In this document: positions 1,152-30,031 of the stretch, in pieces
How the letters are laid out: each line of letters opens with the position of its first letter
Position numbering within the stretch: position 1 is the first letter of the stretch
From: Candidatus Hydrothermarchaeota archaeon
GTDB taxonomy: Archaea; Hydrothermarchaeota; Hydrothermarchaeia; Hydrothermarchaeales; WAQR01
Length of the DNA stretch: 32,126 nt
Assembly: GCA_015520145.1 (NCBI GenBank)
Contig: WAQR01000125.1
Span: forward strand, 1-32,126
Direction of reading: 5' to 3'
Notes under the pieces: generated by a model
The model's database searches: none
What the model saw: the letters and a program-made list of their open reading frames with translations, nothing else
What the model was told of the DNA's origin: nothing
Made by a program: the position numbers and the translations under genes

Positions 1152-1227
1152 ATTACCACAATAATTACTTCAGATATATAACCATGTCGCTTTGTGTCTG
1201 ACTAACCCAATAACTCTACAAAATCCT

Positions 1228-1764
1228 CTACAATATTTTTACCCTCAATTTCGAGTAATCCTCTTTGATATCAACATTAAACCCCATATTTTTGAGAGAT
1301 TCTTCTAAAAATGTCTTTATGAACTCTTTGCCGGCTTTTGAGCCCAGAATAAGTGTGAACTCCTTTTCATCAGCCTTTCTCAGTTTATAGAAGTTGCATA
1401 CCTCAAGCCTTGTGAGCAGGTCTTCGACAGATTTTATCTTTCCTTTGAGCTGTTCTGCATGGGATTTGGCAATCTTGCGGTGTGCGTCCCAGAACTCGTC
1501 AGCCCTGGGGCTGTCCTCAATAAGCTTTAAAAACAATATCCAGTGGTCAAGGTCGATTATCACATGTTCTCCTTCAGCGAGCATATCCACATAGGTGTTT
1601 ATCTTCTCATCCCCTGATTCCAGGAGTTCTTTGTAGTCTGAATAGAATCTTAATGCACGCCTGATAAGCCCGCTTTTCGATGAACGTGTTTCACTTTTTA
1701 GCCTGTCAAATAGTGTGGAGGTCTTGTCATCCAGGGCGATTGTGATCCTGATTGGTGGTTTCAT
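1228..1764 (-). CDS. ribbon-helix-helix (CopG/Arc/MetJ-type) DNA-binding protein with a C-terminal domain of unknown function
   Basis: 178-aa ORF. The N-terminus IRITIALDDKTSTLFDRLKSETRSSKSGLIRRALRFY has the strand-helix-helix pattern of RHH regulators. No NikR-type metal-binding motif is seen. Confidence 0.6.
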   Translation of the reverse strand: MKPPIRITIALDDKTSTLFDRLKSETRSSKSGLIRRALRFYSDYKELLESGDEKINTYVDMLAEGEHVIIDLDHWILFLKLIEDSPRADEFWDAHRKIAKSHAEQLKGKIKSVEDLLTRLEVCNFYKLRKADEKEFTLILGSKAGKEFIKTFLEESLKNMGFNVDIKEDYSKLRVKIL

Positions 1765-1820
1765 GAAAATGAATTCTTTTACCTTATGATTTATATGTCT
1801 TTCTTTTATTCCTTTCTTTC

Positions 1821-1870
1821 ATTCAGGTTTTTATTCAGGTAAAAAGCGTAAAAAGCAACACAAGCAACAC
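1821..1870. repeat. chain of three short tandem duplications
   Basis: ATTCAGGT occurs at 1821-1828 and 1833-1840. GTAAAAAGC x2 is perfect at 1839-1856. AAGCAACAC x2 is perfect at 1853-1870. The chain lies 57-106 bp upstream of the RHH gene start (1764) and just upstream of a TATA-like box at 1872-1880. Confidence 0.9.
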
Positions 1871-1871
1871 A

Positions 1872-1880
1872 TTTTTATAC
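1872..1880 (+). promoter_or_regulatory. TATA-box-like element
   Basis: TTTTTATAC lies about 100 bp upstream of the ATG at 1980, implying a leader of about 75 nt that contains the TGGATAA motifs. It was called by eye only. Confidence 0.35.
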
Positions 1881-1885
1881 ACAGG

Positions 1886-1948
1886 AAATGGATAAATGAG
1901 TTGGTAAATGGATAAGAGGTAATTGGATAAGATAAAAGGACTGGATAG
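1886..1948. repeat. four spaced copies of a TGGATA(A/G) motif
   Basis: AAATGGATAA occurs at 1886-1895 and 1906-1915, AATTGGATAA at 1921-1930, and CTGGATAG at 1941-1948. All lie between the TATA-like box and the ATG at 1980. Confidence 0.8.
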
Positions 1949-1979
1949 ACGAGGTACACCGAGATTGAAAGGTGACGAC

Positions 1980-2834
1980 ATGGCAATTAAAATCGATACA
2001 GATTTGAAGATCATTCTGGGGCTGACTGCGGTATCTGTGTTTTCTGTCATTGCCCCACCACTTGATGGTTCTGTTCTTCGAATCCTGATGGGAATAATTA
2101 TCATACTTTTTCTTCCTGGATATTCTGTTACTGCTGCAATTTTCACAAAAAAAGGAGATATCGACGGCATTGAACGTGTCGCCCTGTCTATCGGGCTTTC
2201 TGTCGCAGTCGCGCCTTTACTCGGGCTCATATTGAACTACACATCGTTTGGGATACGTCTCGTTCCTGTTGTCGCTGCACTGGCGATTTTCATCTTCCTG
2301 ATGTCTGCGCTTGCACTCTACCGCAGGGGTATGCTTGATGAGAGCGAACGGTTTCAGTTTGAGATGGGATGGAAGGATTTTAAGGAAGATACCGGATGGA
2401 AGGAGTTTCCATGTTCTGGCAGGATACTCATGCTGGTGTTGATTGTTGCAATAGTCTCCAGTATAGGGACGCTGGTGTATGTGACATCCAAGTCAGGGCA
2501 GAGGGAGAGATTCACCGAGTTTTATATCCTGGGGGAAGATATGAGAGCGGAGGGATATCCTGCTGTCCTTGGTGTTGGTGAGGAGGGGAGGGTGAATGTA
2601 GGGATTAGGAATAACGAGTATGGGAGAGTGAATTATACTGTGTTGGTGAAAACAGGTGATACCGTGCTTGGGAAGCGGAGTGTGGTGCTTGAACACGGGC
2701 AGAATGTGACATACCTTCAGACATTCTCTATCCCTGAAAAAGGGGAGAGGAAAAAGGTGGAATTTCTATTGTATAAAAACGGGTCAGCAGATATCCCGTA
2801 TCGCGCTCTGCATTTATGGATAACGGTCCGATAG
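1980..2834 (+). CDS. membrane protein, DUF1616-like (several N-terminal TM helices plus a C-terminal soluble domain)
   Basis: The track ORF 1923-2834 starts at a TTG. An internal ATG at 1980 is preceded by AGGTGA (1969-1974) at 5-nt spacing, so it is the preferred start. Four or five hydrophobic helices are followed by a beta-rich domain, as in archaeal DUF1616 proteins. Confidence 0.6.
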   Translation: MAIKIDTDLKIILGLTAVSVFSVIAPPLDGSVLRILMGIIIILFLPGYSVTAAIFTKKGDIDGIERVALSIGLSVAVAPLLGLILNYTSFGIRLVPVVAALAIFIFLMSALALYRRGMLDESERFQFEMGWKDFKEDTGWKEFPCSGRILMLVLIVAIVSSIGTLVYVTSKSGQRERFTEFYILGEDMRAEGYPAVLGVGEEGRVNVGIRNNEYGRVNYTVLVKTGDTVLGKRSVVLEHGQNVTYLQTFSIPEKGERKKVEFLLYKNGSADIPYRALHLWITVR

Positions 2835-2847
2835 CCGTTATGGCAGT

Positions 2848-2885
2848 CAGCCATTAGCCATTACCATCAGCCATTAACAGCATTA
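2848..2885. repeat. (CA)GCCATTA motif x4
   Basis: CAGCCATTA 2848-2856, GCCATTA 2857-2863, CAGCCATTA 2868-2876 and CAGCATTA 2878-2885, in the spacer between the DUF1616-like gene and the M24 peptidase gene. Confidence 0.8.
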
Positions 2886-2920
2886 TATTTATTAATCTGA
2901 CCGCCTCTTTAAAGGTTACT

Positions 2921-3922
2921 ATGAGAATAAAAAAGGCACTCCAAGCCCTTGAGGAAAAAGGGCTTAAATGCGGGATAGTGTTGAAACCCGAAAATATATA
3001 TTACCTGGCAGGATTCTTTCCGTCTGCATTTTGCGCACTTGTCCTGGAGGAAGACCCGCGGCTTTTCGTATCAGACATGGATAAAAAGCTTGCATCAGAT
3101 ATCGATTTGGATGTGAAGCCAATTGAAAACTTTAAAAAAGGGTTTAGACCCGGGTATAAGAAAATCGGTATTGAGAAGGGATATGCCACTGTCAGGTTCT
3201 ATGAGAAGTATCTCAGGGACAGGGAGATATTTGACCTGGATTTTATAAATGATATGCGGAAGGTGAAGGATAAATTCGAAATCAGGCAGATAAAAGATGC
3301 ACTGAAGCTGACAGCCAGAGGGATGGAGATTGCAAAGGAGATGATTGATGCAAAAAGATATACTGAAAAGGAGATAGCAGCAGGGGTGGAGCATTTCTTT
3401 AAATCCAGGGCAGGTTCGGCATTCGAGCCGATTATTGCCTGTGGAGGAAATTCGGCAATACCGCATCACAGACCTTCAAATAAAATCGCTGATAGAGATC
3501 CTGTAATCGTTGATATGGGTGCAAGGGTGAATCATTACAGCTCTGATATCACAAGGACATTTGGATTTTCAGATTCTTCTGATATATTCCTGGCAGTCAG
3601 GGATGCACAGGAGGCAGGTATAAGAGAATGCCGTGCTGGCAATGAGGTAAAGAATGTCGATGCCGCTGTAAGGGGGGTCTTGAAGGAGTATGGTTTTGAA
3701 TGCGATTTTCTTCATTCTGCCGGACACGGTCTCGGGCTTGATGTCCATGACCCACCTGCATTGAAAAAGGATGCAGAAGGTATATTTGAGAAGGGTATGG
3801 TTGTGTCGGTTGAACCTGGGGTTTACAGGGATGTCGGGGTGAGGATAGAGGATATGGTCATTGTCGGCAGGCGTCCGGAGGTAATATCAAAGAACATCGC
3901 AGCAGGCATCGGGGCAGATTGA
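2921..3922 (+). CDS. M24-family Xaa-Pro aminopeptidase/dipeptidase
   Basis: 333-aa ORF with the pita-bread-fold metal-ligand pattern: VIVDMGA, HYSSDITRT, HSAGHGLGLDVHD, VSVEPGVY and RIEDMV. Confidence 0.85.
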   Translation: MRIKKALQALEEKGLKCGIVLKPENIYYLAGFFPSAFCALVLEEDPRLFVSDMDKKLASDIDLDVKPIENFKKGFRPGYKKIGIEKGYATVRFYEKYLRDREIFDLDFINDMRKVKDKFEIRQIKDALKLTARGMEIAKEMIDAKRYTEKEIAAGVEHFFKSRAGSAFEPIIACGGNSAIPHHRPSNKIADRDPVIVDMGARVNHYSSDITRTFGFSDSSDIFLAVRDAQEAGIRECRAGNEVKNVDAAVRGVLKEYGFECDFLHSAGHGLGLDVHDPPALKKDAEGIFEKGMVVSVEPGVYRDVGVRIEDMVIVGRRPEVISKNIAAGIGAD

Positions 3923-3924
3923 GG

Positions 3925-3984
3925 TTGAGCGAGAGATGCGTGAGAGTTGAGTGAATTGAGCGAGAGATGCGTGAGTTGAGTGAG
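3925..3984. repeat. about 31-bp tandem duplication x2
   Basis: TTGAGCGAGAGATGCGTGAG occurs at 3925-3944 and again at 3956-3975. Each copy is followed by (G)TTGAGTGA, with one 1-nt indel. The repeat begins 3 nt after the peptidase stop and ends 16 nt before the larC ATG at 4000. Confidence 0.9.
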
Positions 3985-3999
3985 ATGGAGTTTTGTGAG

Positions 4000-5268
4000 A
4001 TGAAAAGGATTTTGATAATAAACCCGTATCTATCCGGTATTAGCGGGAATATGGTGCTCGGCGCGCTACTTGATATTGGGGCTGATGAGAAACGGCTTGA
4101 GCGGGTTGCAGAGGCAGTCTCTGCCAGGATGGATTGCAGGGTGGAGTGGAGAATGGAGCGGAGGGCGGATATCCGTGCGCTGTGGATTGATACTTCGATT
4201 GAGGGCAGGTTCAGGAGATATGATACCAGGGACGTAGAGGCGCTAGTTTCTTCCCTGGGGTTAAAAAAGGATGCGTCACGATTTGTAAAGGATGTCTTTA
4301 GGACAATAATTGCAGCAGAGAGGGAGGTGCATAAAATATCTGATGCCGCAGAGTTCGGCCCGGATACAGACGGCACGGCCGGCAGCGTTCACCTGCATGA
4401 ACTGGGTTCGCCTGATACGCTCTTTGATATCCTGGGTGCGGCAGCACTTTTAGATGATCTCGGGCTTTTTGGAGATGATGTGGATGTGTTTTCTCTGCCT
4501 GTTGAGGTGGGGTCAGGGAATGTCAGGACGTCTCATGGATTGATACCAGTCCCTGCACCGGTTACCGCTTTGATGTTGAAAAATTTCGGCATACCGTTCC
4601 ATTCTTCAGGAGTTGAGGGGGAGCTGGCAACGCCTACAGGGATCGCGATATTGGCGAATCTTGCTGACGAATACGGGCTTGAGTTTCCTGTGGTAGAGAT
4701 TGAGAATACCGGTATGGGCGCTGGCACATTCAAGCTCGGGGACAGGCCGAATTTTCTCACATTTACACTGGCAAGGGTGCTGGGTGCCAGAGATGAGGGT
4801 GGGGAGTATGTGAGGGTTATGGAAACAAATGTCGACGATGTTTCTGGCGAGGTTCTGGGCTACACGCTGGAACGGCTTTATGAAAATGGTGCGCTGGATG
4901 TCCAGATAGTCCCTTCTGTAACAAAGAAGAACAGGCCGGGGTTTATAATAACTGTTATCGCAAAGGGTGGGGACGAAGCAAGGTTATCAAAGATACTGAT
5001 AGAGGAGACGGGTACGCTTGGAATAAGGACACGAAAGTCTTATAAGAGGTTTCTCCTTAAGCGTGAGGTCGTCAAGGTGGATGTTGAGATACCGGGTTTC
5101 AGGGGCAGGGCGAGGGTCAAGATTGCAAGAGATGATGACGGAAGGGTAGTGAATATCAAACCGGAGTATGATGATGCAAAAGAGATTGCAAAAAAAACTG
5201 GTCTGCCTATCAGGGAGGTGATGAGGGAGATTTATGTTCAATCACTTGAATGCAGGGGGCGATGGTAG
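4000..5268 (+). CDS. larC: LarC-family nickel insertion protein (nickel-pincer cofactor biosynthesis, DUF111/UPF0272)
   Basis: The family-typical N-terminus MKRILIINPYLSGISGNMVLGALLDIGAD starts at the third in-frame ATG (4000) of track ORF 3967-5268. An HLHELGSPDTLFDILG motif is also present. No larB or larE lies nearby. Confidence 0.8.
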   Translation: MKRILIINPYLSGISGNMVLGALLDIGADEKRLERVAEAVSARMDCRVEWRMERRADIRALWIDTSIEGRFRRYDTRDVEALVSSLGLKKDASRFVKDVFRTIIAAEREVHKISDAAEFGPDTDGTAGSVHLHELGSPDTLFDILGAAALLDDLGLFGDDVDVFSLPVEVGSGNVRTSHGLIPVPAPVTALMLKNFGIPFHSSGVEGELATPTGIAILANLADEYGLEFPVVEIENTGMGAGTFKLGDRPNFLTFTLARVLGARDEGGEYVRVMETNVDDVSGEVLGYTLERLYENGALDVQIVPSVTKKNRPGFIITVIAKGGDEARLSKILIEETGTLGIRTRKSYKRFLLKREVVKVDVEIPGFRGRARVKIARDDDGRVVNIKPEYDDAKEIAKKTGLPIREVMREIYVQSLECRGRW

Positions 5269-5510
5269 GATAGTTGGATGGAGATAATTTAGGAATTATT
5301 GGAGCATAAAGGCAACAAAACAGCAGAAAGAACTGATAACTGGCCTGGACACAGGTGAGGCTAGGGTGGATATGATTTTGTGATAAAATGGAAGTGGCGT
5401 TTTAATGCCTGATATAGAAGGAGCTGTTTTGATGGGAAAAAGATATAAAATAGAAGCACCTGTAAACGAAACAATCATTGATATCGTGAAAATGTTGGAG
5501 AATAGATAGA

Positions 5511-5810
5511 ATGACTGACTGGAGGCCGTTTTACAAACTATTTCCACCTGTGGCAGGGCAAACTCTACTTATAGAACTGGAGAAAAGAGGGATAATAAAA
5601 ACTGAAGGAAAAACCATCAAAATAGATATGGATGCAGATTTCCCTGAGTTCTGCATATTCTGTAAACATCTACAACCGTCATCAAGTGCATATATCTATG
5701 TCTGCGGAAAATATGGTATGACACCTGCAGAAACAAAACAGGCTCAAAAAGAGGGCTGTATTCACCCGGAAGGTATTGATTTTGAGATGAGAGAGTTTTG
5801 GGATAAATAA
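5511..5810 (+). CDS. hypothetical small protein (wHTH-like segment plus CxxC..C..C)
   Basis: 99-aa ORF. VAGQTLLIELEKRGIIK looks like a recognition helix plus wing. Cys residues occur at FCIFC, VCG and GCIH. No family was recognised. Confidence 0.4.
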   Translation: MTDWRPFYKLFPPVAGQTLLIELEKRGIIKTEGKTIKIDMDADFPEFCIFCKHLQPSSSAYIYVCGKYGMTPAETKQAQKEGCIHPEGIDFEMREFWDK

Positions 5811-5821
5811 AGATTATGAAA

Positions 5822-5896
5822 TGCAGCCGCCGGGATTCGAACCCGGGTAACGAGCTTGGAAGGCTAGTGTCCTAGACCAGACTAGACCACGGCTGC
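5822..5896 (-). tRNA. tRNA-Gly (anticodon UCC)
   Basis: The reverse strand reads GCAGCCG UG GUCU AGUCUGGUCUA GGAC A CUAGC CUUCCAA GCUCG UUAC CCGGG UUCGAAU CCCGG CGGCUGC A. This is a full cloverleaf with a 7-bp acceptor stem and a canonical T-arm. The anticodon loop is CU-UCC-AA, with one U.C mismatch in the anticodon stem. No CCA is encoded. Confidence 0.9.
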
Positions 5897-5900
5897 TCTT

Positions 5901-5932
5901 GCTCTACTACTTTAATGCTCTACTACTTTAAT
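5901..5932. repeat. perfect 16-bp tandem duplication x2
   Basis: GCTCTACTACTTTAAT occurs at 5901-5916 and 5917-5932, followed by a partial third copy (CTACT). It lies between the stop codon at 5933-5935 and the 5' end of tRNA-Gly. Confidence 0.95.
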
Positions 5933-7150
5933 CTACTGAACTATTAGTTCCTCTGCTAACATCGGAAGAAATATCCCAACATCTGTGACAATTCCAAGCG
6001 CCTGTGCAGTCCCTCTATCACTCAGTTTTGTAACGGTTGCAGGATTTATATCGATACAGATTGTCTTCACGCTGGATGCGAGGAGGTTGCCCACTGCAAT
6101 AGAATGGAGCATTGTAGAGAGCATTAGAACCAGTTCCACATCCTCCAGATTCTTTCTCATCTCTTTTTGGGCGTCTATGACATCTGTTATAACCTCTGGA
6201 AGCGGTCCGTCATCTCTTATCGAACCTGCAAGAACGAAAGGAATCCTTTTTTTGATACACTCATACATTATACCTCCACTGACCTTCCCTTCCCTGACCA
6301 GGTTTTCTATTGAACCTGCACGTTTCACCTCGTTAATTGAATAGAGGTGGTTCCTGTGACCCCCTTCAGTCGACCTCCCTGATCTCAGATCCAGGCCAAG
6401 CGATGTCCCGTACAGCTGGTATTCGATATCATGGACGGCAATCGCATTCCCTGCAAATAATACGTCCACGAACCCTTCTCTGATAAGTGCGGCAAGCGAT
6501 TCAGCAGACCCTGTATGAACCACAGCAGGCCCTGCTACAGCAAGAACCTTTTTCCCTCTTTTTTTCACCTCCCTTATCTCTCCTGCGACCTGACTTACTA
6601 TTGACCTGGTAGGTTTCTCAGAGGATACCCGGCTCTTCATGAAATCGAATATAGTATAACTGCGCGGTCTCTCAGGGGGCTCGACCCTGATCCCGGTATT
6701 ACCCACAACCACCAGGTCGCCCTTTTTGATATCTGAAAACGTCTTCCCGAACGCCTGTTTATTTTCCCTGTCCACAACAATCGCCACGTCCATCTCGGTA
6801 TTCTTTACTTCAATCCATTCGCCGTCCAGAAGCACATAGGTACGGTGGTTAGTGGTCGAGTAAAAACCTTCAGGGAGGGTCATATCCTTTGGTGCCTTCT
6901 CAAGCCTCAGTTCCTCGATATCAGGGATCTTTGCACCTATCTTTAAAAGCTCACCTAAAATCACATCAAGATCTTTTCTATTCCCGGCCTTGACGAGCAG
7001 CCTCGCATAGGATGGGTCTTTTTTATGTTTGCCTATATCAAACTGAATGACCTCGAATTCTCCACCGTGGTCCATTATAGTATCAAACACCTCAGGGAGG
7101 ATAAATGAATCGATTATATGACCTTTGAGTTCGATTTCCTTTACTTCCAA
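5933..7150 (-). CDS. TIGR00300-type protein (LOR/SDH N-terminal-like domain; archaeal ornithine cyclodeaminase/arginine dihydrolase-related family)
   Basis: 405-aa ORF. The N-terminus IELKGHIIDSFILPEVFDTIMDHGGEFEVIQFDIG matches my memory of this conserved archaeal/cyanobacterial family. The exact activity is not assignable. Confidence 0.65.
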   Translation of the reverse strand: MEVKEIELKGHIIDSFILPEVFDTIMDHGGEFEVIQFDIGKHKKDPSYARLLVKAGNRKDLDVILGELLKIGAKIPDIEELRLEKAPKDMTLPEGFYSTTNHRTYVLLDGEWIEVKNTEMDVAIVVDRENKQAFGKTFSDIKKGDLVVVGNTGIRVEPPERPRSYTIFDFMKSRVSSEKPTRSIVSQVAGEIREVKKRGKKVLAVAGPAVVHTGSAESLAALIREGFVDVLFAGNAIAVHDIEYQLYGTSLGLDLRSGRSTEGGHRNHLYSINEVKRAGSIENLVREGKVSGGIMYECIKKRIPFVLAGSIRDDGPLPEVITDVIDAQKEMRKNLEDVELVLMLSTMLHSIAVGNLLASSVKTICIDINPATVTKLSDRGTAQALGIVTDVGIFLPMLAEELIVQ

Positions 7151-7184
7151 GATTATTCACCCATACCTCGTTTTCGTTTCAAAA

Positions 7185-8201
7185 TTAAATAGTTTTTGTC
7201 TTGCCCGCCTGGTAATCTGCAAAATCCGCAAAGTCCACGAACTCAGGTACCGCATATCTGAGCGGGTCGAATCTTTCAAGGTCTTCTACAACCATGCACT
7301 TCATACTCACCTTTGAATGGAGTGAGGACGGCAGGCGGAGTATCCTTTTTATATCAACTGTCACTTTTGCATCCAGGAACTTTGATATCTGGACAGTCAC
7401 CCGCTCTTCAAACCTCTTATATGCCCTCGGGTCTTTGATTATCTTTCTAATCGCCCTATCACGTCCCTTTCTAAGGTCTTCCACCACGGCGTCCCTGTTT
7501 CTTATTATCTCACCTGCCTTTACTGTACCAAGGCCGAACTCTTTAAAATCTTCTGGTTCTGCATACTCGATGATGTCTGCAAACCTGCTCCTGAAAATCC
7601 CTGTATAGCCCGCACTGTAGAGGGTTGGATCCCTGCCCTTTTTTGTCTTTGATTCGTCCCTCACCGGCACGCTCGCCCTGATATAGTCCAGGATGAACCC
7701 GCGCTCGGCCTCCCCGATTTCCATGATATCGGTATCGAGTATCCTTATATGGTACCCCCTGCCTGAATAGACATAGTAGACGTTTTCGAGTTTCAGCTGT
7801 TTTAGGTTCGTATCTATCTCCATAACCATATTCTTTGCCCGGTTAAGGCAGACCTCACAGACCATCCCCTCACCACAGCAGTTCTTGACCGGCAGGTCCT
7901 TTGCATCTATATCGAAAACAAGCTCGGCCCTTTCCCAGTTCTCCCTCTTTTTTGGGTATTCATATAAAGAAACACTGCAATAGGCTGCAAACGGGCTTCT
8001 GTTTTTTAAAAAATCTGCAAGCTCATCGATTGAATTGAAGGTATTATATCGGTCTCTTGGCCCAAGGCCGTCGTGATCGAATCCGAATTCCCTCTTTTTT
8101 ATGGAGTCCACTATGAAGTCCGGGACGTCTTCTCTATCCCATTCCTCGCTATAATATCTCTTCCTCTCTTCTGGTGTTGCCTGGCGAAACACAGTAATCA
8201 C
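7185..8201 (-). CDS. priS: DNA primase small (catalytic) subunit PriS
   Basis: 338-aa ORF. It has the catalytic acidic motif ELVFDIDAKD, a Zn-knuckle CCGEGMVCEVC, and the SGRGYHIRI and RLPSSLH motifs typical of archaeo-eukaryotic primases. Confidence 0.85.
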   Translation of the reverse strand: MITVFRQATPEERKRYYSEEWDREDVPDFIVDSIKKREFGFDHDGLGPRDRYNTFNSIDELADFLKNRSPFAAYCSVSLYEYPKKRENWERAELVFDIDAKDLPVKNCCGEGMVCEVCLNRAKNMVMEIDTNLKQLKLENVYYVYSGRGYHIRILDTDIMEIGEAERGFILDYIRASVPVRDESKTKKGRDPTLYSAGYTGIFRSRFADIIEYAEPEDFKEFGLGTVKAGEIIRNRDAVVEDLRKGRDRAIRKIIKDPRAYKRFEERVTVQISKFLDAKVTVDIKRILRLPSSLHSKVSMKCMVVEDLERFDPLRYAVPEFVDFADFADYQAGKTKTI

Positions 8202-8226
8202 AAATCAAAACTTTTCTAAACCGATT

Positions 8227-9246
8227 TCATAGACGGGCTGCATATCCCAGTGCCAGCTCGAAATACCGTTTAGTAAGGGCTACCGCCTCCTCTTTTTCTT
8301 TCTCGGTTATATCTGGATCATCTAATCTGAAGCTTGAGACCTTCGACCTCACATACGCCCTGTAGCACTTATAAAATAAGAGAGGTGCTATATCATCACC
8401 TGCATATTCGCTGTACCTCTTTTCAAGATGTTCTGACAGGTCGTCCCTGCCATGGAAATCCATGTCCATGGACAGAAATGCAATTTCAGACGCGATATCC
8501 CCGCACCGAAACGCCTCGTTAAATTCGATGGCATCGAAGATATAAATCCCTTCACTGTACAGCCTGCCGCCCTCTCTCACTACGAAGATGTTGCCAGAAT
8601 GCACATCCCCATGACATGCCCGAATCTTTTTTTCAGCAACTCTCCTCTCAAAGAGTTCTCTGTTATCTTCGATGAAACTTAGGACATTCATTTTTACAGT
8701 ATCAAACGACGATTCCTCCAGCAGGTTACCTCTAAGATCCTGGGTCTGGTCAAAATTCTGGACCCAGTTGGCCTTGATCTGTTCTACCGATCCGTATTCA
8801 TCAACACCCTCACCGGTCTCAGCTTTACTATGAAAATCTGCAAGCAGTTCCGCGATTTTATCAATGTCATTTTTATATATCTCTCCTTTTTTCAGGAGTT
8901 CTGTCATTATAGACTCCTGCGGCAGCTGGACCATCTTTACAGCATATTCAACAGTTTCAAACTCGCTGTTTATCCTGATATCTCCAGAGGGGGACCTGCC
9001 TATCGGTACAACGTCCAGATAGATACCAGGACAGAGCATCCTGTTTATCTCAAGTTCTCTATCGCAGAAATGTTTTCTCTTAGCTAACGTTGTAAAGTCG
9101 AGAAATCCGAAGTCCACGGGTTTTTTTATCTTGTATACGTACTCACCTGTGAGGAAGACATGGGATATATGGGTCTGTAGATGTACTATCTTCAAGACCT
9201 TCTCATCATATACCTCCGGGTTCATCAATGCATCAACGACCGACAT
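8227..9246 (-). CDS. aminoglycoside-phosphotransferase-fold kinase (COG2187-like), substrate unknown
   Basis: The Brenner/catalytic-loop motif HGDVHSGNIF is followed by FDAIEF (DFG-like). The track ORF starts at a GTG (9264). The ATG at 9246 is preceded by GGAGGAG at about 5 nt, so it is the preferred start (MSVVDALMNPEVY). Confidence 0.7.
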   Translation of the reverse strand: MSVVDALMNPEVYDEKVLKIVHLQTHISHVFLTGEYVYKIKKPVDFGFLDFTTLAKRKHFCDRELEINRMLCPGIYLDVVPIGRSPSGDIRINSEFETVEYAVKMVQLPQESIMTELLKKGEIYKNDIDKIAELLADFHSKAETGEGVDEYGSVEQIKANWVQNFDQTQDLRGNLLEESSFDTVKMNVLSFIEDNRELFERRVAEKKIRACHGDVHSGNIFVVREGGRLYSEGIYIFDAIEFNEAFRCGDIASEIAFLSMDMDFHGRDDLSEHLEKRYSEYAGDDIAPLLFYKCYRAYVRSKVSSFRLDDPDITEKEKEEAVALTKRYFELALGYAARL

Positions 9247-9260
9247 GATATCTCCTCCAG

Positions 9261-9322
9261 TCACCTCTCGTTACCTCTCGTCATCTCTCGTCACCTCTAT
9301 GCCACTTCCCGTCACTTCTCTC
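9261..9322. repeat. 10-bp tandem array, 4 good plus 2 degenerate copies
   Basis: The units are TCACCTCTCG, TTACCTCTCG, TCATCTCTCG, TCACCTCTAT, GCCACTTCCC and GTCACTTCTC. On the coding (minus) strand they read CGAGAGGTGA-like, each containing an SD-like GAGGTGA. The array fills the leuA-kinase spacer. Confidence 0.9.
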
Positions 9323-10871
9323 TAATCAGAAATATCCTGTTAATCCCCTGGATCATCGCCTCGACAGACGCTGTTACTATGTCCTCTCTTGCAGCCCTTG
9401 CGGTAACTAAATTACCCCTGCTGTCCTCGAGCTTTATTATCACATCTGCCAGGGCGTCAGAACCACCTGTTATTGCCTCGAGATGGTACTCGGTCACCCT
9501 GATATCTTCAATGCCTTTTACCACACTCCTTATAGCATTTAGTGCAGCGTCCACAGGTCCTACTCCTGTCTCAGCTCCCATTATCTCTCTGTCCTTATCT
9601 GTGTCCAGGTCCTTGAATCTCAGCCTGACTGAGGCAGTTGGCACCATATTATTTCCTGTCATAACCGCATATTCCTTTAGATCGATGACCGTTTTATCTT
9701 CAGACACCTGGCCTACAACAGTCTCTGCGATCGCCTTCAAGTCCATCTCTGTTACCACCTTGCCTTTATCTCCCAGATCTTTCACTCTCCGGGTTACTTC
9801 CATTAACTGGTCTTTTTTTATCTCAAATCCCATCTCTTCAAGCATTGCACGTATCCCGTGTGTACCTGCATGTTTTCCAGATACAATCCGCCTCTTGTGC
9901 CCGACCATTTCCGGCGTCATAACCCCGGGTTCAAATGTGTTCGCATCTTCCAGTACGCCGTGTGTATGTATCCCGGATTCGTGAGAGAATGCGTTTTCAC
10001 CTACTATCGGGAAATTCGGCATGACCCTGATCCCTGTAAGCCTTTCTACAAGTTTCGATGTCTCGTAGAGGTATCTGGTATTGATATCTGTCTCAACACC
10101 ATAAATTGACGTCAGGCTCATCACTACCTCTTCGAGGTCAGCATTACCAGCCCGCTCACCCAGGCCGTTTATCGTGCACTGGACCTCTCTTGCCCCTGCC
10201 TCGACTGCTGCAAGGCTGTTTGCCACTGCAAGCCCGAAATCGTTATGGCAGTGGACGTCTATCGGTATTCTGACACTGTCAAACACCTCTGATGTCAGGT
10301 CCCGCATCGCCTGGGGCATCATGACACCTACCGTATCAGGGATATTTATTATATCTGCCCCGGCATCCTCAACTGCCCTGAATATCTCAAGAAGATACCC
10401 TGTCTCGGTTCTGGTGGCGTCCATCGCCGAGAACAGGCATTTTATACCGTGGTCTTTGATGTAAGTGACCGCGTCTACTGCCATGTTTTTGACTTCTTCC
10501 TTTCCCTTCTTTATCGTGTGTTTGATCTGGATATCAGAAGTCGAGACAAACGTATGTACTAAATCGACACCGCAGTCCAGACACGCGTCTATATCAGGGG
10601 TTAAGACCCGTGACAGACCGCAGACATGCGATTCCAGTCCTTCACCTGCTATCTTCGATACGGCATCTCTCTCACCTTTCGATGAGATTGGAAAGCCCGC
10701 TTCAATAATATCAACACCAAGTTTGTCAAGCTGACGTGCAATAGCAATCTTATTCTCAACGGTCAGTGCCACACCTGGCGTCTGTTCCCCATCCCTCAAC
10801 GTGGTATCAAAAATTGCCACTTTATCTGGTAGATTCATATTTTTCTTCGCTTCATTAATGACAGAGAACAT
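9312..10871 (-). CDS. leuA: 2-isopropylmalate synthase / (R)-citramalate synthase family enzyme with a C-terminal LeuA-dimer regulatory domain
   Basis: 519-aa ORF with FDTTLRDGEQTPGV, HCHNDFGLAVANSLAAVEAGA, HESGIH and a C-terminal GVGPVDAALNAI...GGSDALA domain. LeuA cannot be separated from methanogen-type CimA by eye. The true start may be the internal MNLPDKVAIFDTT. Confidence 0.8.
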   Translation of the reverse strand: MFSVINEAKKNMNLPDKVAIFDTTLRDGEQTPGVALTVENKIAIARQLDKLGVDIIEAGFPISSKGERDAVSKIAGEGLESHVCGLSRVLTPDIDACLDCGVDLVHTFVSTSDIQIKHTIKKGKEEVKNMAVDAVTYIKDHGIKCLFSAMDATRTETGYLLEIFRAVEDAGADIINIPDTVGVMMPQAMRDLTSEVFDSVRIPIDVHCHNDFGLAVANSLAAVEAGAREVQCTINGLGERAGNADLEEVVMSLTSIYGVETDINTRYLYETSKLVERLTGIRVMPNFPIVGENAFSHESGIHTHGVLEDANTFEPGVMTPEMVGHKRRIVSGKHAGTHGIRAMLEEMGFEIKKDQLMEVTRRVKDLGDKGKVVTEMDLKAIAETVVGQVSEDKTVIDLKEYAVMTGNNMVPTASVRLRFKDLDTDKDREIMGAETGVGPVDAALNAIRSVVKGIEDIRVTEYHLEAITGGSDALADVIIKLEDSRGNLVTARAAREDIVTASVEAMIQGINRIFLIREK

Positions 10872-11131
10872 AATCCCGCCTTTTCATTTTACAGACCTCC
10901 TTTTTAGGATAGCAAAAGAGATTGTATGGTTTAGAATATAAATATTTCGTATGGTGAGGTGTGGTTGTATAATGCCGTTATGTGTTAGGGCGAACAGTTC
11001 CGCGGCAACCGATATCTTTATATCCTCGTTGAATATAATCCATACTCGCCAAAGATACAGTTTAATGTTAATTATATCAGTATATTATACCGGTATATCT
11101 GTGGCCTCACTACTGACTTGCATGTCTAATA

Positions 11132-11150
11132 TTCCTGAAATTTCCTGAAA
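11132..11150. repeat. TTCCTGAAA x2, 10-bp period
   Basis: Copies lie at 11132-11140 and 11142-11150, in the leuA / HprK-like divergent spacer. Confidence 0.85.
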
Positions 11151-11190
11151 GTGATTTCCAAATCGATGAGATAATTGTGGGATAATGGAA

Positions 11191-11214
11191 CAATATTGAT
11201 ACCAATATTGATAC
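11191..11214. repeat. perfect 12-bp tandem duplication x2
   Basis: CAATATTGATAC occurs at 11191-11202 and 11203-11214, 33 bp upstream of the ATG at 11247. Confidence 0.95.
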
Positions 11215-11246
11215 CTTACACGATTTTCAAGGAGTTTTGAAAAAAG

Positions 11247-12416: not shown

Positions 12417-12467
12417 CCCAATCCTCTCCAGGATGAAGGCGAGAAAGGACATCAGGAGATATCGACA

Positions 12468-12493
12468 CAAACTATAACTTCAAACTATAACTT
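12468..12493. repeat. perfect 13-bp tandem duplication x2
   Basis: CAAACTATAACTT occurs at 12468-12480 and 12481-12493, about 50 bp downstream of the HprK-like stop and 30 bp upstream of the small Cys-rich ORF. Confidence 0.95.
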
Positions 12494-12522
12494 TTATGAG
12501 GTTAAGATAATATCTGACTACG

Positions 12523-19135: not shown

Positions 19136-19169
19136 CTTCACAAGAGTTATATCACAAGAGGTATATCAC

Positions 19170-20190: not shown

Positions 20191-20232
20191 CTGGAAGAGT
20201 ACTGGAAGAGGTCTGGAAGGGTGCAGGAAAAG
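20191..20232. repeat. 11-bp phased CTGGAAGAG-like motif x3-4
   Basis: CTGGAAGAG occurs at 20191-20199 and 20202-20210, CTGGAAGGG at 20213-20221, and the degenerate GCAGGAAAAG at 20223-20232. The array directly abuts TTATAAAA at 20233-20240. Confidence 0.85.
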
Positions 20233-22892: not shown

Positions 22893-23127
22893 TATTTCAC
22901 CATCAAAGTTTCAATTTCAAAGCTCTTTTGATGCAGGAGTTAATAATTTTAACTGAAATGAACAGTTAATCGTGTTTTTGTTCAGTCTAATTAATATTTA
23001 ATCTTTTTAATCTGTTTACGGTTAATATAATACCACCGCAAGTAATATATATGCACGATAACCATTAAAACATTAACGGATGGTTAGTATTTCTTTCTAT
23101 TTTTCTAACCTCCGCTCTTACCCCCTT

Positions 23128-23257: not shown

Positions 23258-23282
23258 TTAGGATGGTATCTTAGGATGGTAT
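23258..23282. repeat. 12-nt unit x2, 13-bp period
   Basis: TTAGGATGGTAT occurs at 23258-23269 and 23271-23282, ending 3 nt before the HAD hydrolase ATG (23286). Confidence 0.9.
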
Positions 23283-23285
23283 TTT

Positions 23286-23963
23286 ATGGCAATTAAAGCG
23301 ATATTCTTCGATATCGATGACACGCTCTACGACAGCACGAAACTATCCACTTTTGCAAGGAAAAATTCTGTCGATGCCATGATAGATGCAGGGCTCCCTG
23401 GTAGCAGTGAAGAGATATACAGGGCCCTGGAAGAGATAATAGACAGATTTGGAGCGAACTACGGGCGGCATTATGATGAGCTGTTAAATATGCTTGGCCT
23501 CACCTGGAATCCGAAGATCGTTGCGGCAGGTGTGGTGGCATACGAACGCACAAAGGTGGGGTATCTAAAACCCTATCCAGGTGTAGTCCCGCTGTTATTA
23601 AAACTGAAACAGAGATACAGGCTTGGCATCATAAGCAACGGTCTTCCAGTCAAGCAGTGGGAGAAGTTGATAGGTCTTGGGATTCACCACCTGTTCGATA
23701 CTGTTGCAACATCTGGGGAACATGGATTCAAGAAACCCGAAAAAGAGATATTCGATTTTGCAATGGAAAACCTGGGGGTCAGGCCAGGCGAATCAATAAT
23801 GGTCGGTGACAGGCTGGACACAGACATCCTCGGCGGCAACCGGGCAGGCATGACGACAGTAAGGCTGAGGCGGGGGAAATATGCCGACAGAGAACCGGCG
23901 GGTGAAGAACAGAGACCTGACCACGAGATATCTGCGCTCTCGGAGATCCTGGAAATTATATAA
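23286..23963 (+). CDS. HAD-superfamily (subfamily IA) phosphatase/hydrolase
   Basis: 225-aa ORF with motif I FFDIDDTLY, motif II ISNG, and motif III/IV K...GDRLDTDI. Confidence 0.85.
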   Translation: MAIKAIFFDIDDTLYDSTKLSTFARKNSVDAMIDAGLPGSSEEIYRALEEIIDRFGANYGRHYDELLNMLGLTWNPKIVAAGVVAYERTKVGYLKPYPGVVPLLLKLKQRYRLGIISNGLPVKQWEKLIGLGIHHLFDTVATSGEHGFKKPEKEIFDFAMENLGVRPGESIMVGDRLDTDILGGNRAGMTTVRLRRGKYADREPAGEEQRPDHEISALSEILEII

Positions 23964-23977: not shown

Positions 23978-24017
23978 TCAATCCCTCTCAATCTTCTTCA
24001 ATCCTCTTCAATCCCCA
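23978..24017. repeat. 10-bp tandem array x4 (TCAATCCYCT-like)
   Basis: The units start at 23978, 23988, 23998 and 24008. The array straddles the stop codon (23998-24000) of the minus-strand wHTH gene and encodes its last residues (GIEED). Confidence 0.9.
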
Positions 24018-24752: not shown

Positions 24753-24762
24753 AAGTAAAGAA

Positions 24763-24778
24763 TAAGAGTGTAAGAGTA
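24763..24778. repeat. 8-bp tandem duplication x2
   Basis: TAAGAGTG at 24763-24770 and TAAGAGTA at 24771-24778, in the glutaredoxin/deoA spacer. Confidence 0.8.
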
Positions 24779-24788
24779 TAAACGTGGG

Positions 24789-26330: not shown

Positions 26331-26365
26331 ATCAGGGGGCGGGTGGTGGGCGGCAGGTTATATCT

Positions 26366-26746
26366 TCATATCTTCCCATACTTCTCCAGTACCCTATTGA
26401 CCCGTTTAACCAGGTCCTCCCTGATAAACGGCTTGGTAATATAATCATCTGCTTTAAGTACCTGTATCCCCAGCATTTTATCTATATTCTGCGCCCTTAT
26501 GGTGAGGAGGATTATTGGAACATCTTTATTCTTCTCTCTTATCTTTCTAAAGACATCCCATCCGTCAATCTCGGGCATCATGATATCCAGGATGATTAAG
26601 TCCGGTACATAGGTATCCAGTTTTTCCAGGCACTCTGCTCCACTAAGCGCTTCAGTAACCTCATGACCCTTCTTCTCCAAAACAAGTTTTACAAGATCCA
26701 CGGTATCCTGTTCGTCGTCGACAACCATTATTTTACTCATCTTCAC
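26366..26746 (-). CDS. CheY-like response regulator, receiver domain only
   Basis: 126-aa ORF. IMVVDDE, DLIILDIMMPEIDG (phospho-acceptor Asp), LLT and a conserved Lys (ITKPF). Confidence 0.9.
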   Translation of the reverse strand: MKMSKIMVVDDEQDTVDLVKLVLEKKGHEVTEALSGAECLEKLDTYVPDLIILDIMMPEIDGWDVFRKIREKNKDVPIILLTIRAQNIDKMLGIQVLKADDYITKPFIREDLVKRVNRVLEKYGKI

Positions 26747-28232: not shown

Positions 28233-28346
28233 TTTCCCGTCCCGTAAGTTTAATACAAACTCAAGTTCTAAAGTGATTTTTATTGTATATTTAGTTTATG
28301 GTAAAACTAGTATCTCTAAATGAAATCTGGTAATTCCCACAAGAGG

Positions 28347-28391
28347 CTAAAAGCCGGGAAGACTTCTGGTTAGGCTACACCTGGCTTTTAG
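28347..28391. promoter_or_regulatory. 9-bp perfect inverted repeat separated by 27 bp
   Basis: CTAAAAGCC (28347-28355) and GGCTTTTAG (28383-28391) lie between the divergent HK and acylphosphatase-like promoters. Confidence 0.35.
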
Positions 28392-28433
28392 ACGAACTTA
28401 TGGCCATTTGGAGGATACTGGCAGATGCATAAG

Positions 28434-28442
28434 TTTTAAATA
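28434..28442 (+). promoter_or_regulatory. TATA-box-like element for the acylphosphatase-like gene (leaderless transcript expected)
   Basis: TTTTAAATA is centred about 28 bp upstream of the ATG at 28466. No usable SD spacing is present. Confidence 0.4.
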
Positions 28443-28465
28443 TCACGAATTATGAATCATAGGAT

Positions 28466-29176
28466 ATGCCCAAGTACAGAGTAACCATAACCGGCAGCAG
28501 GGTCCACAACGTTGCATATCGCCCGTTTCTCCTGTCGGTTGCCGAAGGATTTGAAATTGACCGATTCTTTGCTAAAAATATCCGGAAAGGAAATACAGGG
28601 ATCGTGGAGGCGTTAATAGATGGAGATGAAGATAAAATTGAGAGATTTAAAGAGTATATCATGGAAAATTTCCCTGAAAACGCCTCTGTCGATGATATAG
28701 CCTTTTCAGATTATGATGGTCATGTAATGAGCGTGGAATCCTTTTACAGATACCTGACTGCAAGTCAGCTCTCGAAAATTGCAGGCACAGGGGTATCTCT
28801 GCTAAAGATAACTGAAGGGATATCAAAAAAGCAGGACATGATGCTCGAGAAACAGGACATGATGCTCGAGAAGCAGGACAGCATGTTAGAGAAGCAGGAC
28901 ATGATGCTCGAGAAACAAGACATGATGTTAGAGAAACAGGACAAGATGCTCGAGAAACAGGACAAGATGTTAGAGAAGCAGGACAGCATGTTAGAGAAGC
29001 AGGATTCCCTTAAAGATGTTGTGGAGCGCGGTTTCAGGGAGCTAAAGGAGGAGCACATCAAGACGAGGGAGATGTCAATGGAGATATTCCGGTCAGAAGT
29101 TCAGGTGCTAAGGGAGGAGATCGATTCCCTGCGTTCGAGCGTTGAAGAGATAAGGAAGAAGGTCGGGATAGCTTAA
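28466..29176 (+). CDS. acylphosphatase-like domain protein with a heptad (KQDxMLE) tandem-repeat region and a C-terminal helical tail
   Basis: 236-aa ORF. The N-terminus YRVTITGSRVHNVAYRPF...AKN...G.VEALIDGDEDKIERFKEYI parallels the acylphosphatase/HypF-N pattern V.G.VQGV.FR...N...G.V. Residues from about 122 to 180 are eight to nine 7-aa repeats. Confidence 0.6.
   Translation: MPKYRVTITGSRVHNVAYRPFLLSVAEGFEIDRFFAKNIRKGNTGIVEALIDGDEDKIERFKEYIMENFPENASVDDIAFSDYDGHVMSVESFYRYLTASQLSKIAGTGVSLLKITEGISKKQDMMLEKQDMMLEKQDSMLEKQDMMLEKQDMMLEKQDKMLEKQDKMLEKQDSMLEKQDSLKDVVERGFRELKEEHIKTREMSMEIFRSEVQVLREEIDSLRSSVEEIRKKVGIA
28829..29005 (+). repeat. in-frame 21-nt tandem repeat, 8 full copies plus a partial ninth
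   Basis: Unit boundaries start at 28829, 28850, 28871, 28892, 28913, 28934, 28955 and 28976 (AAR CAR GAC NNN ATG YTN GAG). The encoded array is KQD(M/S/K)MLE x8, then KQDSL. Confidence 0.95.
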
Positions 29177-29287
29177 TTGTAATTGAGCTGGAGGTGGAGG
29201 CATGTCTGCCGGACATGTCCGAGAAAGTTATTTAAGCATAAATGGATACAATGAAGGCATTAGATAAAATCTGACCAGGTAGATTAG

Positions 29288-30010
29288 ATGCCTACAACCG
29301 AGCCTCCAGATGACGAAAAACGGTCCCTGGAAGAACACCTAGAAGAGTTACTCAAACGCCTTTTGATAGTTGTTATCCAGCTTGTTATACTCACTCTACT
29401 ATTCTTCCCGGTAAGTGGAGAAGTAATAAAATTTATAAAATACGACCTCCTTCCACAGGATATTGATTTGATTGTACTAAATCCGCTCGAGTTTATATAT
29501 ATGAGATTCCAGATATCGATAGTATTTGCCCTGATATTCACGACACCAACGATAATCTTCGAATCATATCGTTTCATGAAACCCGGACTGTTCCCAAGTG
29601 AGAGGAACCTCTTTTTAAAGGTCGTTCCAGCATCATTTTTACTTTTTGTTGTTGGAGGGATCTTTTCTTACAAAATCCTAGTCCCTATCTCACTCGAATC
29701 CCTTATAGAATACTCAAAAAATGCTGTTGTCCCTGTACTTACATTGACCAGGTTTATATCCTTTGTATCATTCATGCTCTTGAGTCTTGGTCTCATTTTC
29801 CAGTTCCCCCTGGTAATCTCATTTCTCGTAAAGAGCGGGCTTATAAAGGTCAGCGACCTTAAAGAAAAGAGAAAGTTAGTATATCTTACAATGGTGGCTT
29901 TTAGTATGGTAATATCTCCTGAGAGTACATTTGTAACCCCGTTTCTAATAGCCTTGAGTATGATCGCTGTCTATGAAATGAGCCTCGTTTTTGCTAAACA
30001 TTTCTTATAA
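29288..30010 (+). CDS. tatC: twin-arginine translocase subunit TatC
   Basis: 240-aa ORF. LEEHLEELLKRL at the N-terminus is followed by six TM segments and F..PGL..(S/K)ER (FMKPGLFPSERN). No tatA is evident next to it. Confidence 0.85.
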   Translation: MPTTEPPDDEKRSLEEHLEELLKRLLIVVIQLVILTLLFFPVSGEVIKFIKYDLLPQDIDLIVLNPLEFIYMRFQISIVFALIFTTPTIIFESYRFMKPGLFPSERNLFLKVVPASFLLFVVGGIFSYKILVPISLESLIEYSKNAVVPVLTLTRFISFVSFMLLSLGLIFQFPLVISFLVKSGLIKVSDLKEKRKLVYLTMVAFSMVISPESTFVTPFLIALSMIAVYEMSLVFAKHFL

Positions 30011-30031
30011 CTTATAATTAACTCTTAACTC
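30004..30031. repeat. two adjacent 7-bp tandem duplications
   Basis: CTTATAA occurs at 30004-30010 and 30011-30017. TTAACTC occurs at 30018-30024 and 30025-30031. The first pair overlaps the tatC stop codon; the spacer is convergent with the dehydratase gene. Confidence 0.9.

Follow-up and report, generated by a model that had tools for sequence, protein, structure and literature searches.

Borgs are giant linear extrachromosomal elements of Methanoperedens whose tandem repeats (TRs) are defined as perfect arrays, free of single-nucleotide polymorphisms (SNPs), with at least three units and a length of at least 50 nt (PMC9879509; Schoelmerich et al., PLoS Biol 2023). These repeats are enriched in adenine on the coding strand and flanked by partial repeats, and repeats of this type are virtually absent from host chromosomes (PMC9879509). 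A recent preprint reports the de novo origin of tandem duplications as universal, with cases from bacteria, archaea, fungi, and also viruses, and with microhomology arms longer than 3 bp in approximately half of the strain-variable duplications (preprint 10.64898/2026.02.28.708716). In this study, we analyzed a 32,126-bp stretch of DNA that is a complete NCBI contig (hereafter the window), in which most of the spacers between genes carry short head-to-tail duplications, and compared these arrays with the systems described to date. To our knowledge, such a density has not been described for a prokaryotic chromosome.

Contingency loci are composed of units of 1–9 nt repeated in many copies at specific genes, where the copy number switches expression and is maintained by selection. 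In the non-coding DNA of organelles, such as chloroplast spacers, short tandem duplications of adjacent sequence dominate the indels between close relatives. Levinson and Gutman, in 1987, are said to have described indels that arise by slipped-strand mispairing. Microhomology, of 7 bp, has been found to be involved in plant mitochondria (PMC7643612). In the pyrE spectra of Sulfolobus acidocaldarius, tandem duplications of more than 3 bp are a regular spontaneous class, and large indels, duplications and deletions together, make up approximately 10–15% of the mutants scored (PMC7785828, PMC3139894).

To catalog the arrays, Tandem Repeats Finder (TRF) was run at a score of at least 30, which returned 42 rows on the window, and an exact-period scan was added for perfect duplications. 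The null consisted of 200 segment-wise dinucleotide-preserving shuffles. Boundaries of several genes were refined with the help of the sequence itself and of genes called on strain contigs, and the refined map comprised 31 spacers with a total of 3,605 bp (11% of the window) and 28.5 kb of coding DNA. The spacers contained 22 TR regions compared with 2.4 ± 1.4 in the shuffles (maximum 6), a density approximately 10-fold higher, and 650 bp of spacer (18%) lay inside TRs compared with 63 ± 38 bp (1.8%). TRs were present in 19 of the 31 spacers. Six perfect duplications with a period of at least 9 nt were found in the spacers compared with 0.12 in the shuffles (maximum 2); over the whole window, the exact-period scan identified eight perfect two-copy duplications with units of at least 9 nt, two of which touch genes. 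Coding DNA contained 11 TR regions compared with 5.2 ± 2.4 in the shuffles. Inverted repeats were only mildly enriched in the window (10 vs. 2.9), and half of them came from one low-complexity spacer.

These counts agree with the original prediction that most spacers carry tandem duplications and that perfect duplications of at least 9 bp are in excess. Nearly all of the loci it listed were recovered at the same coordinates by TRF and the exact-period scan, none of the shuffles gave as many TRs as were observed, and the intergenic–coding comparison that it proposed gave 22 regions in 3.6 kb of spacer against 11 in 28.5 kb of coding DNA. Two of the listed loci were weak: an 8-mer present twice with a 4-nt gap at 1214–1233, which is below the TRF threshold, and GATAGT ×2 at 13749–13760, which is of chance size. 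Seven loci were added to that list (226–262, 11071–11098, 13488–13508, 16170–16192, 19138–19169, 26360–26375, and 31780–31797).

In a 50-kb control from Escherichia coli K-12, which has 6.1 kb of annotated spacer, the same pipeline detected no spacer TR. When an ORF-based (open reading frame–based) gene map was used, the window showed 5.4 TRs per kb, compared with 0–1.3 TRs per kb in eleven bacterial (Chloroflexi) and Thaumarchaeota loci, except for one locus (L006) with 2.6 per kb. Seven loci of related archaea, when pooled, contained 10 regions compared with 2.9 ± 1.9 in the shuffles (approximately 3-fold), with a coverage of 4.5%. The enrichment in related archaea is thus weaker yet real.

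Strain contigs were found through the HprK-like protein of the window, which is encoded identically on three other contigs. GCA_026997335.1 (L028) aligns with window positions 1193–12687 at 98.7% identity (11.5 kb), GCA_027054095.1 (L029) with 9677–13551 at 99.3% identity, and a contig from ENA (L030) with 11112–13474 at 99.9% identity. A Logan assembly of run SRR10312498 (L021) matched positions 29147–32126 with 5 mismatches and no gaps, the arrays at 30004–30033 and 31780–31797 included. The shared arrays were identical base for base in these four independent assemblies from different samples, and the concern that the arrays might be assembly artefacts was settled in favor of their being real.

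Six indels in all were found between the window and L028, L029, and L030, and five of them correspond to exactly one repeat unit at TR loci. In the divergent RHH/DUF1616 spacer, four staggered duplications at 1799–1871 (13 nt ×2, 92%; 12 nt ×2, 91%; and two perfect 9 nt ×2) include an extra 9-nt unit at 1839–1847 that is missing from L028. The entire M24/LarC spacer is occupied by an array at 3925–4002, composed of a 31/29-nt unit ×2 (93%) followed by a 15-nt unit ×2 (86%), in which the GAGATG start region is duplicated; the window carries an extra 29-nt unit at 3944–3972, and the spacer measures 77 nt compared with 48 nt in L028. The spacer that leads from the LOR/SDH stop to the 5′ end of tRNA-Gly carries a perfect 16-nt duplication at 5900–5932 in the window, of which the unit at 5900–5915 is extra and L028 has a single copy, giving 36 nt upstream of the tRNA compared with 20 nt. 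A 13-nt ×2.2 array (86%) at 11071–11098 has its first copy (11071–11083) missing from both L028 and L029. Conversely, TGTGGTTGTAT at 10960–10970 is present as a single copy in the window and L028 and L029 show an 11-nt tandem duplication after position 10959. The sole indel that is not a repeat unit, at 9299, is one base long. Every one of the six indels lies in a spacer, and the 10.2 kb of coding DNA contains none. In the 1,295 bp of spacer compared between the window and L028, 11 SNPs (8.5 per kb) and five unit-sized changes (3.9 per kb) were counted, which is approximately one change per two SNPs.

One-copy and two-copy alleles are therefore found among near-identical strains at 1839, 5900, and 10959. 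The copies in the window are identical at 1839 and 5900 and already diverged at 3944 and 11071, where the other strains have one; at these latter two loci, copy loss in L028, and at 11071 also in L029, is the simpler reading. Both directions, gain and loss, seem to occur. Other perfect duplications, those at 1853, 11191–11215 (12 nt ×2, 31 nt upstream of the HprK-like gene; L028, L029, and L030), 12468–12493 (13 nt ×2, downstream of the HprK-like gene; L028, L029, and L030), and 12712–12734 (11 nt ×2, TTAAAGGGATA, upstream of KaiC-like gene 1; L029 and L030) were present in every strain covering them, and a 10-nt ×1.9 array at 11132–11150 was common to all strains. The spacer alignment suggested earlier as a check for copy-number polymorphism thus gave a positive result, with five whole-unit differences, and the proposal of a slippage- or duplication-type process is supported by this polymorphism between near-identical strains. 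Alignment of spacers through Elp3 relatives was also attempted and was abandoned, with protein identity at 60–65%, synteny gone, and spacers unalignable. The L018/L020 comparison showed pseudogene decay and no TR polymorphism.

Two further observations were made at these loci. L028 contains a run of 10 N at approximately 700–710 (window approximately 1900–1910), exactly at the TGGATAA repeat region, which points to a break in the assembly caused by copy-number heterogeneity. In the region upstream of tRNA-Gly (5897–5932, minus strand), where L028 has 20 nt from the LOR/SDH stop to the tRNA 5′ end, the duplication in the window brings in another TTAAAG, located approximately between −35 and −30, and one could speculate that it creates or shifts a TATA-like element.

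The units of the arrays are 7–31 nt long, mostly 9–16 nt, and differ at every locus, as had been noted before. The copy number is mostly two, with a few arrays of three to seven copies (9247–9311 and 23978–24014), and the array length is 14–60 nt. The identity between copies is continuous from 100% down to 77%: among the arrays in or next to spacers, approximately 10 are perfect, approximately nine show 90–94%, approximately seven show 83–88%, and one shows 78%. These graded identities indicate steady birth and decay without homogenization. Staggered chains, in which each unit starts within the end of the previous one, were observed at 1799–1871, 3925–4002, 12361–12402, and 30004–30033.

With respect to placement, TRs cover 21% of convergent spacers, 21% of co-directional spacers, and 14% of divergent spacers. 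Because convergent spacers, which contain neither promoters nor start sites, are as dense as the others, the arrays are not tied to these elements, and the earlier view that they sit at functional boundaries and might follow a repeat-reading regulatory logic was not sustained. In operon-type spacers, the Shine–Dalgarno (SD) and start regions are copied at 9247–9311, 3925–4002, 19138–19169, and 24762–24781, and in convergent spacers, stop codons are copied at 30004–30017 and 26360–26375. Short spacers hold little beyond an SD sequence, a stop codon, and a TATA element; therefore, any tolerated duplication touches one of them. A search for a motif shared by the junctions of the duplications and the starts of the units found none.

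Inside genes, in-frame repeats were found in the final codons of PriS (9 nt ×2.6; 7214–7236, minus strand), in a 39-aa small ORF (9 nt ×3, 77%; 12526–12552, plus strand), in an acylphosphatase-domain protein (21 nt ×8.2, 85%, encoding KQDMMLE heptads; 28829–29004, plus strand), and eight codons ahead of the stop of a CimA/LeuA-like gene (a perfect 9-nt duplication, LMKVMKE, also present in L021; 31780–31797, minus strand). The genic periods of 21, 9, 9, 9, and 6 nt are divisible by three, and the exceptions lie in the last codons, over stops, or are of chance size, as are the 8-nt coding repeats at 16667 and 20912. In the HprK-like gene, an 11/12-nt ×2 array and a perfect 8-nt ×2 array occupy the last 18 codons (12361–12402, plus strand), and the tail of the protein has been rewritten by repeats. 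This genic pattern is what purifying selection would leave from a process striking everywhere. As additional observations, frame-shifting 10-nt repeats at 23998–24014 (minus strand) run over the stop of the DUF5830 gene, whose product ends with GIEED and whose downstream copy in another frame reads GIEGKI before a stop; this C-terminal tail appears to have been rewritten by duplication. The acylphosphatase-domain protein (28466–29176, plus strand) has a C-terminal half of eight KQDMMLE heptads followed by more coiled-coil–like sequence, an unusual combination with such a domain.

The junctions of 12 perfect duplications of at least 7 nt in or next to spacers were compared with a null in which randomly chosen spacer segments of equal lengths were duplicated. 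The observed junction microhomology was 0, 1, 1, 1, 1, 0, 1, 1, 0, 0, 0, and 2 nt, with a mean of 0.67 nt compared with 0.88 nt in the null. In the null, 8.8% of the junctions extend to at least 3 nt, compared with 0 of 12 observed; if half of the duplications had arms, the probability of finding none of 12 with at least 3 nt would be 0.0002. Young duplications are without junction microhomology beyond the chance level. Approximately seven of 17 imperfect arrays showed partial third copies of 3–8 nt, although TRF detection of short imperfect arrays favors such cases, and a microhomology-mediated share may exist among the older arrays. Separately, two adjacent double substitutions relative to L028 were observed, one at 1826–1827 (GG vs. 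AT) that raises the perfection of a 12-nt direct repeat and one at 11092–11093 (GG vs. CC) that raises the perfection of the palindrome ATACCGGTAT; these hint at template-switch mutagenesis.

Overall, it is assumed, with a probability of roughly 0.8, that the arrays are products of a fast and ongoing process that duplicates short segments in tandem and contracts the repeats again, with selection acting as a filter. This reading is built on direct observations, namely the enrichment of the arrays, their restriction to spacers, gene termini, and in-frame sites, their range of ages, and the whole-unit differences between strains. Segments of approximately 7–31 nt would be copied head to tail at essentially arbitrary positions, and the resulting two-copy repeats would then expand, contract, or decay through point mutation. 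Selection would purge nearly all such events in coding DNA and leave survivors in spacers, at extreme gene ends, and at tolerant in-frame sites, so that the spacers would be largely built and resized by duplication. At the molecular level, mis-realignment during replication or repair, or template switching of the nascent strand, may produce the duplications, requiring at most 0–1 nt of terminal homology. Alternatively, staggered breaks may be filled in and joined, and sequence alone cannot separate these two possibilities. Most of the arrays would be neutral by-products, and individual ones could alter protein termini or the spacing of promoters, SD sequences, or starts.

Several points temper this interpretation. 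Classical slippage and microhomology-mediated duplication predict more homology than the observed 0–2 nt junctions. Local hotspots, for which a uniform neutral model does not account, may underlie the staggered clustering at 1799–1871, 3925–4002, and 30004–30033, and the polarity of gain and loss cannot be fixed without an outgroup. SD, start, or TATA-like sequences are duplicated at 9247–9311, 3925–4002, 19138–19169, 5900–5932, and 12712–12734, some of which could be selected. The controls are small (5–6 kb of spacer per group), and the base is one 32-kb contig with approximately 18 kb of strain overlap, from which a genome-wide rate is an extrapolation.

A rival explanation, corresponding to the repeat-reading logic of the original prediction, is that the arrays are selected regulatory devices, such as repeated sites for transcription factors, for TBP/TFB, or for ribosomes (stand-by SD), or spacing tuners of a contingency-like kind, retained because the number of copies would determine expression. 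SD-like or start-containing units do lie directly 5′ of genes, as in (GAGAGGTGAC)n at 9247–9311, GAGATG at 3925–4002, and the array at 19138–19169; two units, upstream of tRNA-Gly and KaiC1, start with TTAAAG; and the copy number varies between strains at five loci, as expected for expression tuning. However, the unit differs at each locus, which leaves no possibility of a common reader, and the density is equal in convergent spacers. The decay, graded to 77% without homogenization, and the mostly two-copy state also disagree with maintained devices, as do the frame-shifting repeats over stops and in C-terminal tails. The overlap with signals is itself expected in short spacers. Selection as the general cause is therefore considered improbable. 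Mobile-element footprints, in which target-site duplications remain after insertion and excision of insertion sequences (IS), miniature inverted-repeat transposable elements (MITEs), or casposon-type elements, or after filling-in of other site-specific staggered cuts, would account for perfect direct repeats that are independent of microhomology and would match the 0–2 nt junctions. A possible C-terminal transposase remnant in the Elp3/PfkB spacer (17953–18066), which had no Pfam hit, would also fit. A given transposase, however, makes target-site duplications of a fixed length, whereas the lengths here form a continuous range of 7–31 nt. None of the arrays is flanked by an intact IS, a MITE, or terminal inverted repeats, the difference between alleles is exactly one unit without leftover element sequence, and neither arrays of three to seven copies nor staggered chains fit such footprints, which makes this explanation very unlikely.

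A connection with Borgs had been raised in the original prediction, and Borg-type or other element-encoded machinery that propagates repeats could in principle act on a host chromosome. Like Borg repeats, the arrays have locus-specific units, occur in genes as well as in spacers, have genic unit lengths that are mostly multiples of three, and turn over rapidly between related genomes. Nevertheless, no array in the window is perfect with at least three units over at least 50 nt, and no perfect array of at least three units was found in the window even with a cut-off of at least 30 nt. Approximately 10 of approximately 33 arrays are perfect, the others being 77–94% identical, and most are two-copy with many decayed. 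The A content of TRs is barely raised (38.6% compared with 35.6% in all co-directional spacers), and the perfect arrays, with a flanking periodicity of 0–2 nt (the chance level), appear to lack flanking partial repeats, whereas some imperfect arrays have the partial third copies described above. The housekeeping genes on both strands, the GC content of 45%, and relatives that are Hydrothermarchaeales-like rather than Methanoperedens also speak against it, as does the virtual absence of such repeats from host chromosomes (PMC9879509). The involvement of Borg-type machinery is hence rated slightly lower still than that of mobile-element footprints. The least credible of all is that the arrays arose by chance in AT-rich, low-complexity spacers or through assembly or sequencing errors. 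A few of the shortest items are indeed of chance size (GATAGT ×2 at 13749 and the 8-nt coding repeats at 16667 and 20912), but the perfect duplications of at least 9 nt and the total TR count far exceed the shuffles, and an artefact would neither spare coding DNA, nor show graded divergence, nor be reproduced in four independent assemblies. Ongoing duplication and contraction under selection therefore remains the preferred reading.

The remaining spacer arrays are distributed along the whole window. A 14-nt ×2.6 array (78% matches by TRF) lies at 226–262, between the DapB stop and the deoxyhypusine-synthase start. A 15-nt ×2 array (93%) at 1903–1932 lies within four TGGATAR-containing units, and the array of the DUF1616/M24 spacer at 2849–2876 can be described as 13 nt ×2 (92%) or 7 nt ×4. 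From the LeuA stop to the APH-like start, 9247–9311 (minus strand) contains six to seven degenerate copies of the SD-like decamer GAGAGGTGAC; the TRF core is at 9260–9298 (10 nt ×3.9, 86%), and degenerate copies reach approximately 9320. An 11-nt ×1.9 array (90%) at 13488–13508 lies directly past the KaiC1 stop, a perfect 7-nt ×2.1 array at 15439–15453 lies in the convergent KaiC2/hyp220 spacer, and a 10-nt ×2.3 array (84%) at 16170–16192 lies in the hyp220/Elp3 spacer. The PfkB/Dph2 spacer is occupied by a 14-nt ×2.3 array (94%) at 19138–19169, in which the SD region is duplicated ahead of the GTG start at 19170. Upstream of Nnr, an 11-nt ×2.6 array (88%) was found at 20191–20219.

In the divergent MFS/HAD spacer, a 9-nt ×2.4 array (92%) is located at 22997–23018, and a 13-nt ×2.2 array (93%) at 23258–23286 adjoins the HAD start codon. 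The convergent HAD/DUF5830 spacer contains a 10-nt ×3.7 array (85%) at 23978–24014, whose last two copies (23995–24014, straddling the stop) are perfect; it overruns the DUF5830 stop and alters the last residues. An 8-nt ×2.5 array (83%) at 24762–24781 lies 7 nt upstream of the AMP-phosphorylase–like gene, and a perfect 8-nt ×2 array at 26360–26375 extends across the response-regulator stop in a convergent spacer. At 30004–30033, in the convergent TatC/IlvD spacer, two perfect 7-nt duplications are adjacent, CTTATAA ×2, which includes the TatC stop, and TTAACTC ×2.3; both are also present in the Logan assembly.

Other features of the spacers were also noted. Between the HprK-like gene and KaiC1, the 39-aa small ORF at 12523–12642 (plus strand) is unannotated and Cys-rich (CxxC...C...C), with only a faint Pfam match (IBR_1, E = 0.05). 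The KaiC1/TrpA spacer (320 nt, upstream of trpA) contains, at 13628–13650, a perfect stem of 10 bp whose loop measures 3 nt, GTTGAGAGAG TAC CTCTCTCAAC, which has no Rfam match. The divergent Elp3/PfkB spacer (280 nt) has no tandem repeat, and its GC-rich portion folds no better than shuffles. It contains an open frame at 17953–18066 (plus strand), AKVLDRKWGLRAPAMAHGITDHIWSWEELLSFVVPPR followed by a stop, which had no Pfam hit and which may resemble the C-terminal tail of an IS transposase; it would then be the remnant of a mobile element. An Rfam search of the window matched tRNA-Gly alone, both at the gathering threshold and at E ≤ 0.5; hence, no array corresponds to a known RNA. A scan for sigma-70 promoters and terminators was uninformative, as the host is an archaeon.

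The window has a GC content of approximately 45% and genes on both strands. These include DapB, deoxyhypusine synthase, an RHH protein, DUF1616, an M24 peptidase, LarC, tRNA-Gly, an LOR/SDH-type enzyme, the primase PriS, LeuA/CimA, an APH-like protein, the HprK-like protein, two KaiC-like ATPases, TrpA, hyp220, Elp3, PfkB, Dph2, Nnr, an MFS transporter, HAD, DUF5830, an AMP-phosphorylase–like protein, glutaredoxin, a histidine kinase with a response regulator, the acylphosphatase-domain protein, TatC, and IlvD. The presence of dapB, priS, leuA/cimA, trpA, elp3, dph2, ilvD, tatC, and tRNA-Gly is in accordance with the chromosomal origin proposed at the outset. The nearest Elp3 proteins, from Hydrothermarchaeales-like archaea, are 60–65% identical, and IlvD relatives show 66–87% identity. 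Exact look-ups with the window Dph2 (with an ORF-derived start) and Elp3 gave no match, and a JGI metagenome scan with Dph2 gave a single relative with 42% identity. Judging from these protein relationships, the source is a poorly sampled archaeon that is probably related to Hydrothermarchaeota and is not Methanoperedens; sample labels suggest that it came from hydrothermal samples. The loci of four IlvD relatives (L023–L026) are very compact, with 0.3–6% spacer and many overlapping genes, and were too compact to add much power to the enrichment analysis; L022 has 15% spacer, compared with 11% in the window. The growth of spacers through duplication may be restricted to the sub-lineage to which the window belongs.

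Old arrays with many copies are the usual basis for reconstructing the birth of tandem repeats. In the present case, the birth stage is visible in a natural population: the 3.6 kb of spacer contain dozens of two-copy duplications whose ages span the full range, and one- and two-copy alleles occur among strains approximately 1% or less apart. Should the whole genome show this density, spacer length in this archaeon would be shaped by duplication rather than by deletion bias, and strain-level variation would be expected in start-region spacing, as in the M24/LarC spacer and upstream of tRNA-Gly, and in protein termini. The lack of microhomology at the junctions differs from the predominance that has been reported for microhomology-mediated duplication and offers a handle on the enzymology; the arrays can also be compared with Borg repeats, whose origin is unexplained. 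At such spacers, annotators can expect start codons that are ambiguous, gaps in scaffolds, and heterogeneity in copy number, the N run in L028 being one example. A bolder and tentative proposal, on which we would not yet rely, is that this vent-type lineage has an exceptional rate of microhomology-independent short tandem duplication, at approximately one per two spacer substitutions, that would make it a chromosomal "two-copy-stage" counterpart of Borg dynamics, with spacers, start regions, promoter spacing, and protein termini continually formed and remodeled. It would point to an unusual step in replication or repair, for example, re-priming by a polymerase or primase-polymerase without terminal homology or altered processing of Okazaki flaps.

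Compared with the known systems, the arrays show partial likeness to each. As in contingency loci, the copy number near gene starts varies between strains and could change expression, but the units here are 7–31 nt, mostly two-copy, unique to each locus, found in all spacer types, and decaying. Duplication-dominated indels are shared with organelle spacers, although those are organelle genomes in which microhomology is often involved. The Sulfolobus data, unlike those of the window, are a laboratory spectrum at a selected gene in an unrelated crenarchaeon, without reported accumulation in spacers. Borg repeats resemble the arrays in having locus-unique units derived from local sequence, in occurring in spacers and in frame within genes, in their fast turnover, and in that some arrays begin inside the final part of an ORF; the arrays of the window differ in being mostly two-copy, 14–60 nt long, perfect to decayed, not A-enriched, and located on the chromosome of an unrelated archaeon. 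The closest likeness in form is to microhomology-mediated tandem duplications (MTDs), in which a single copy of approximately 8–30 nt becomes two head-to-tail copies that are polymorphic between isolates and can seed longer arrays (PMC8639346; 10.64898/2026.02.28.708716). MTDs are also reversible, and in the window a loss of this kind would fit the loci at 3944 and 11071. MTDs have been reported in archaea as well as in bacteria and fungi; they are defined by microhomology arms, whereas the 12 perfect duplications here have 0–2 nt, and the density in the window, approximately 10-fold over shuffles, is well above that of control loci. The arrays of the window thus stand outside the Borg class and belong to the general short tandem duplications, among which they are unusually dense.

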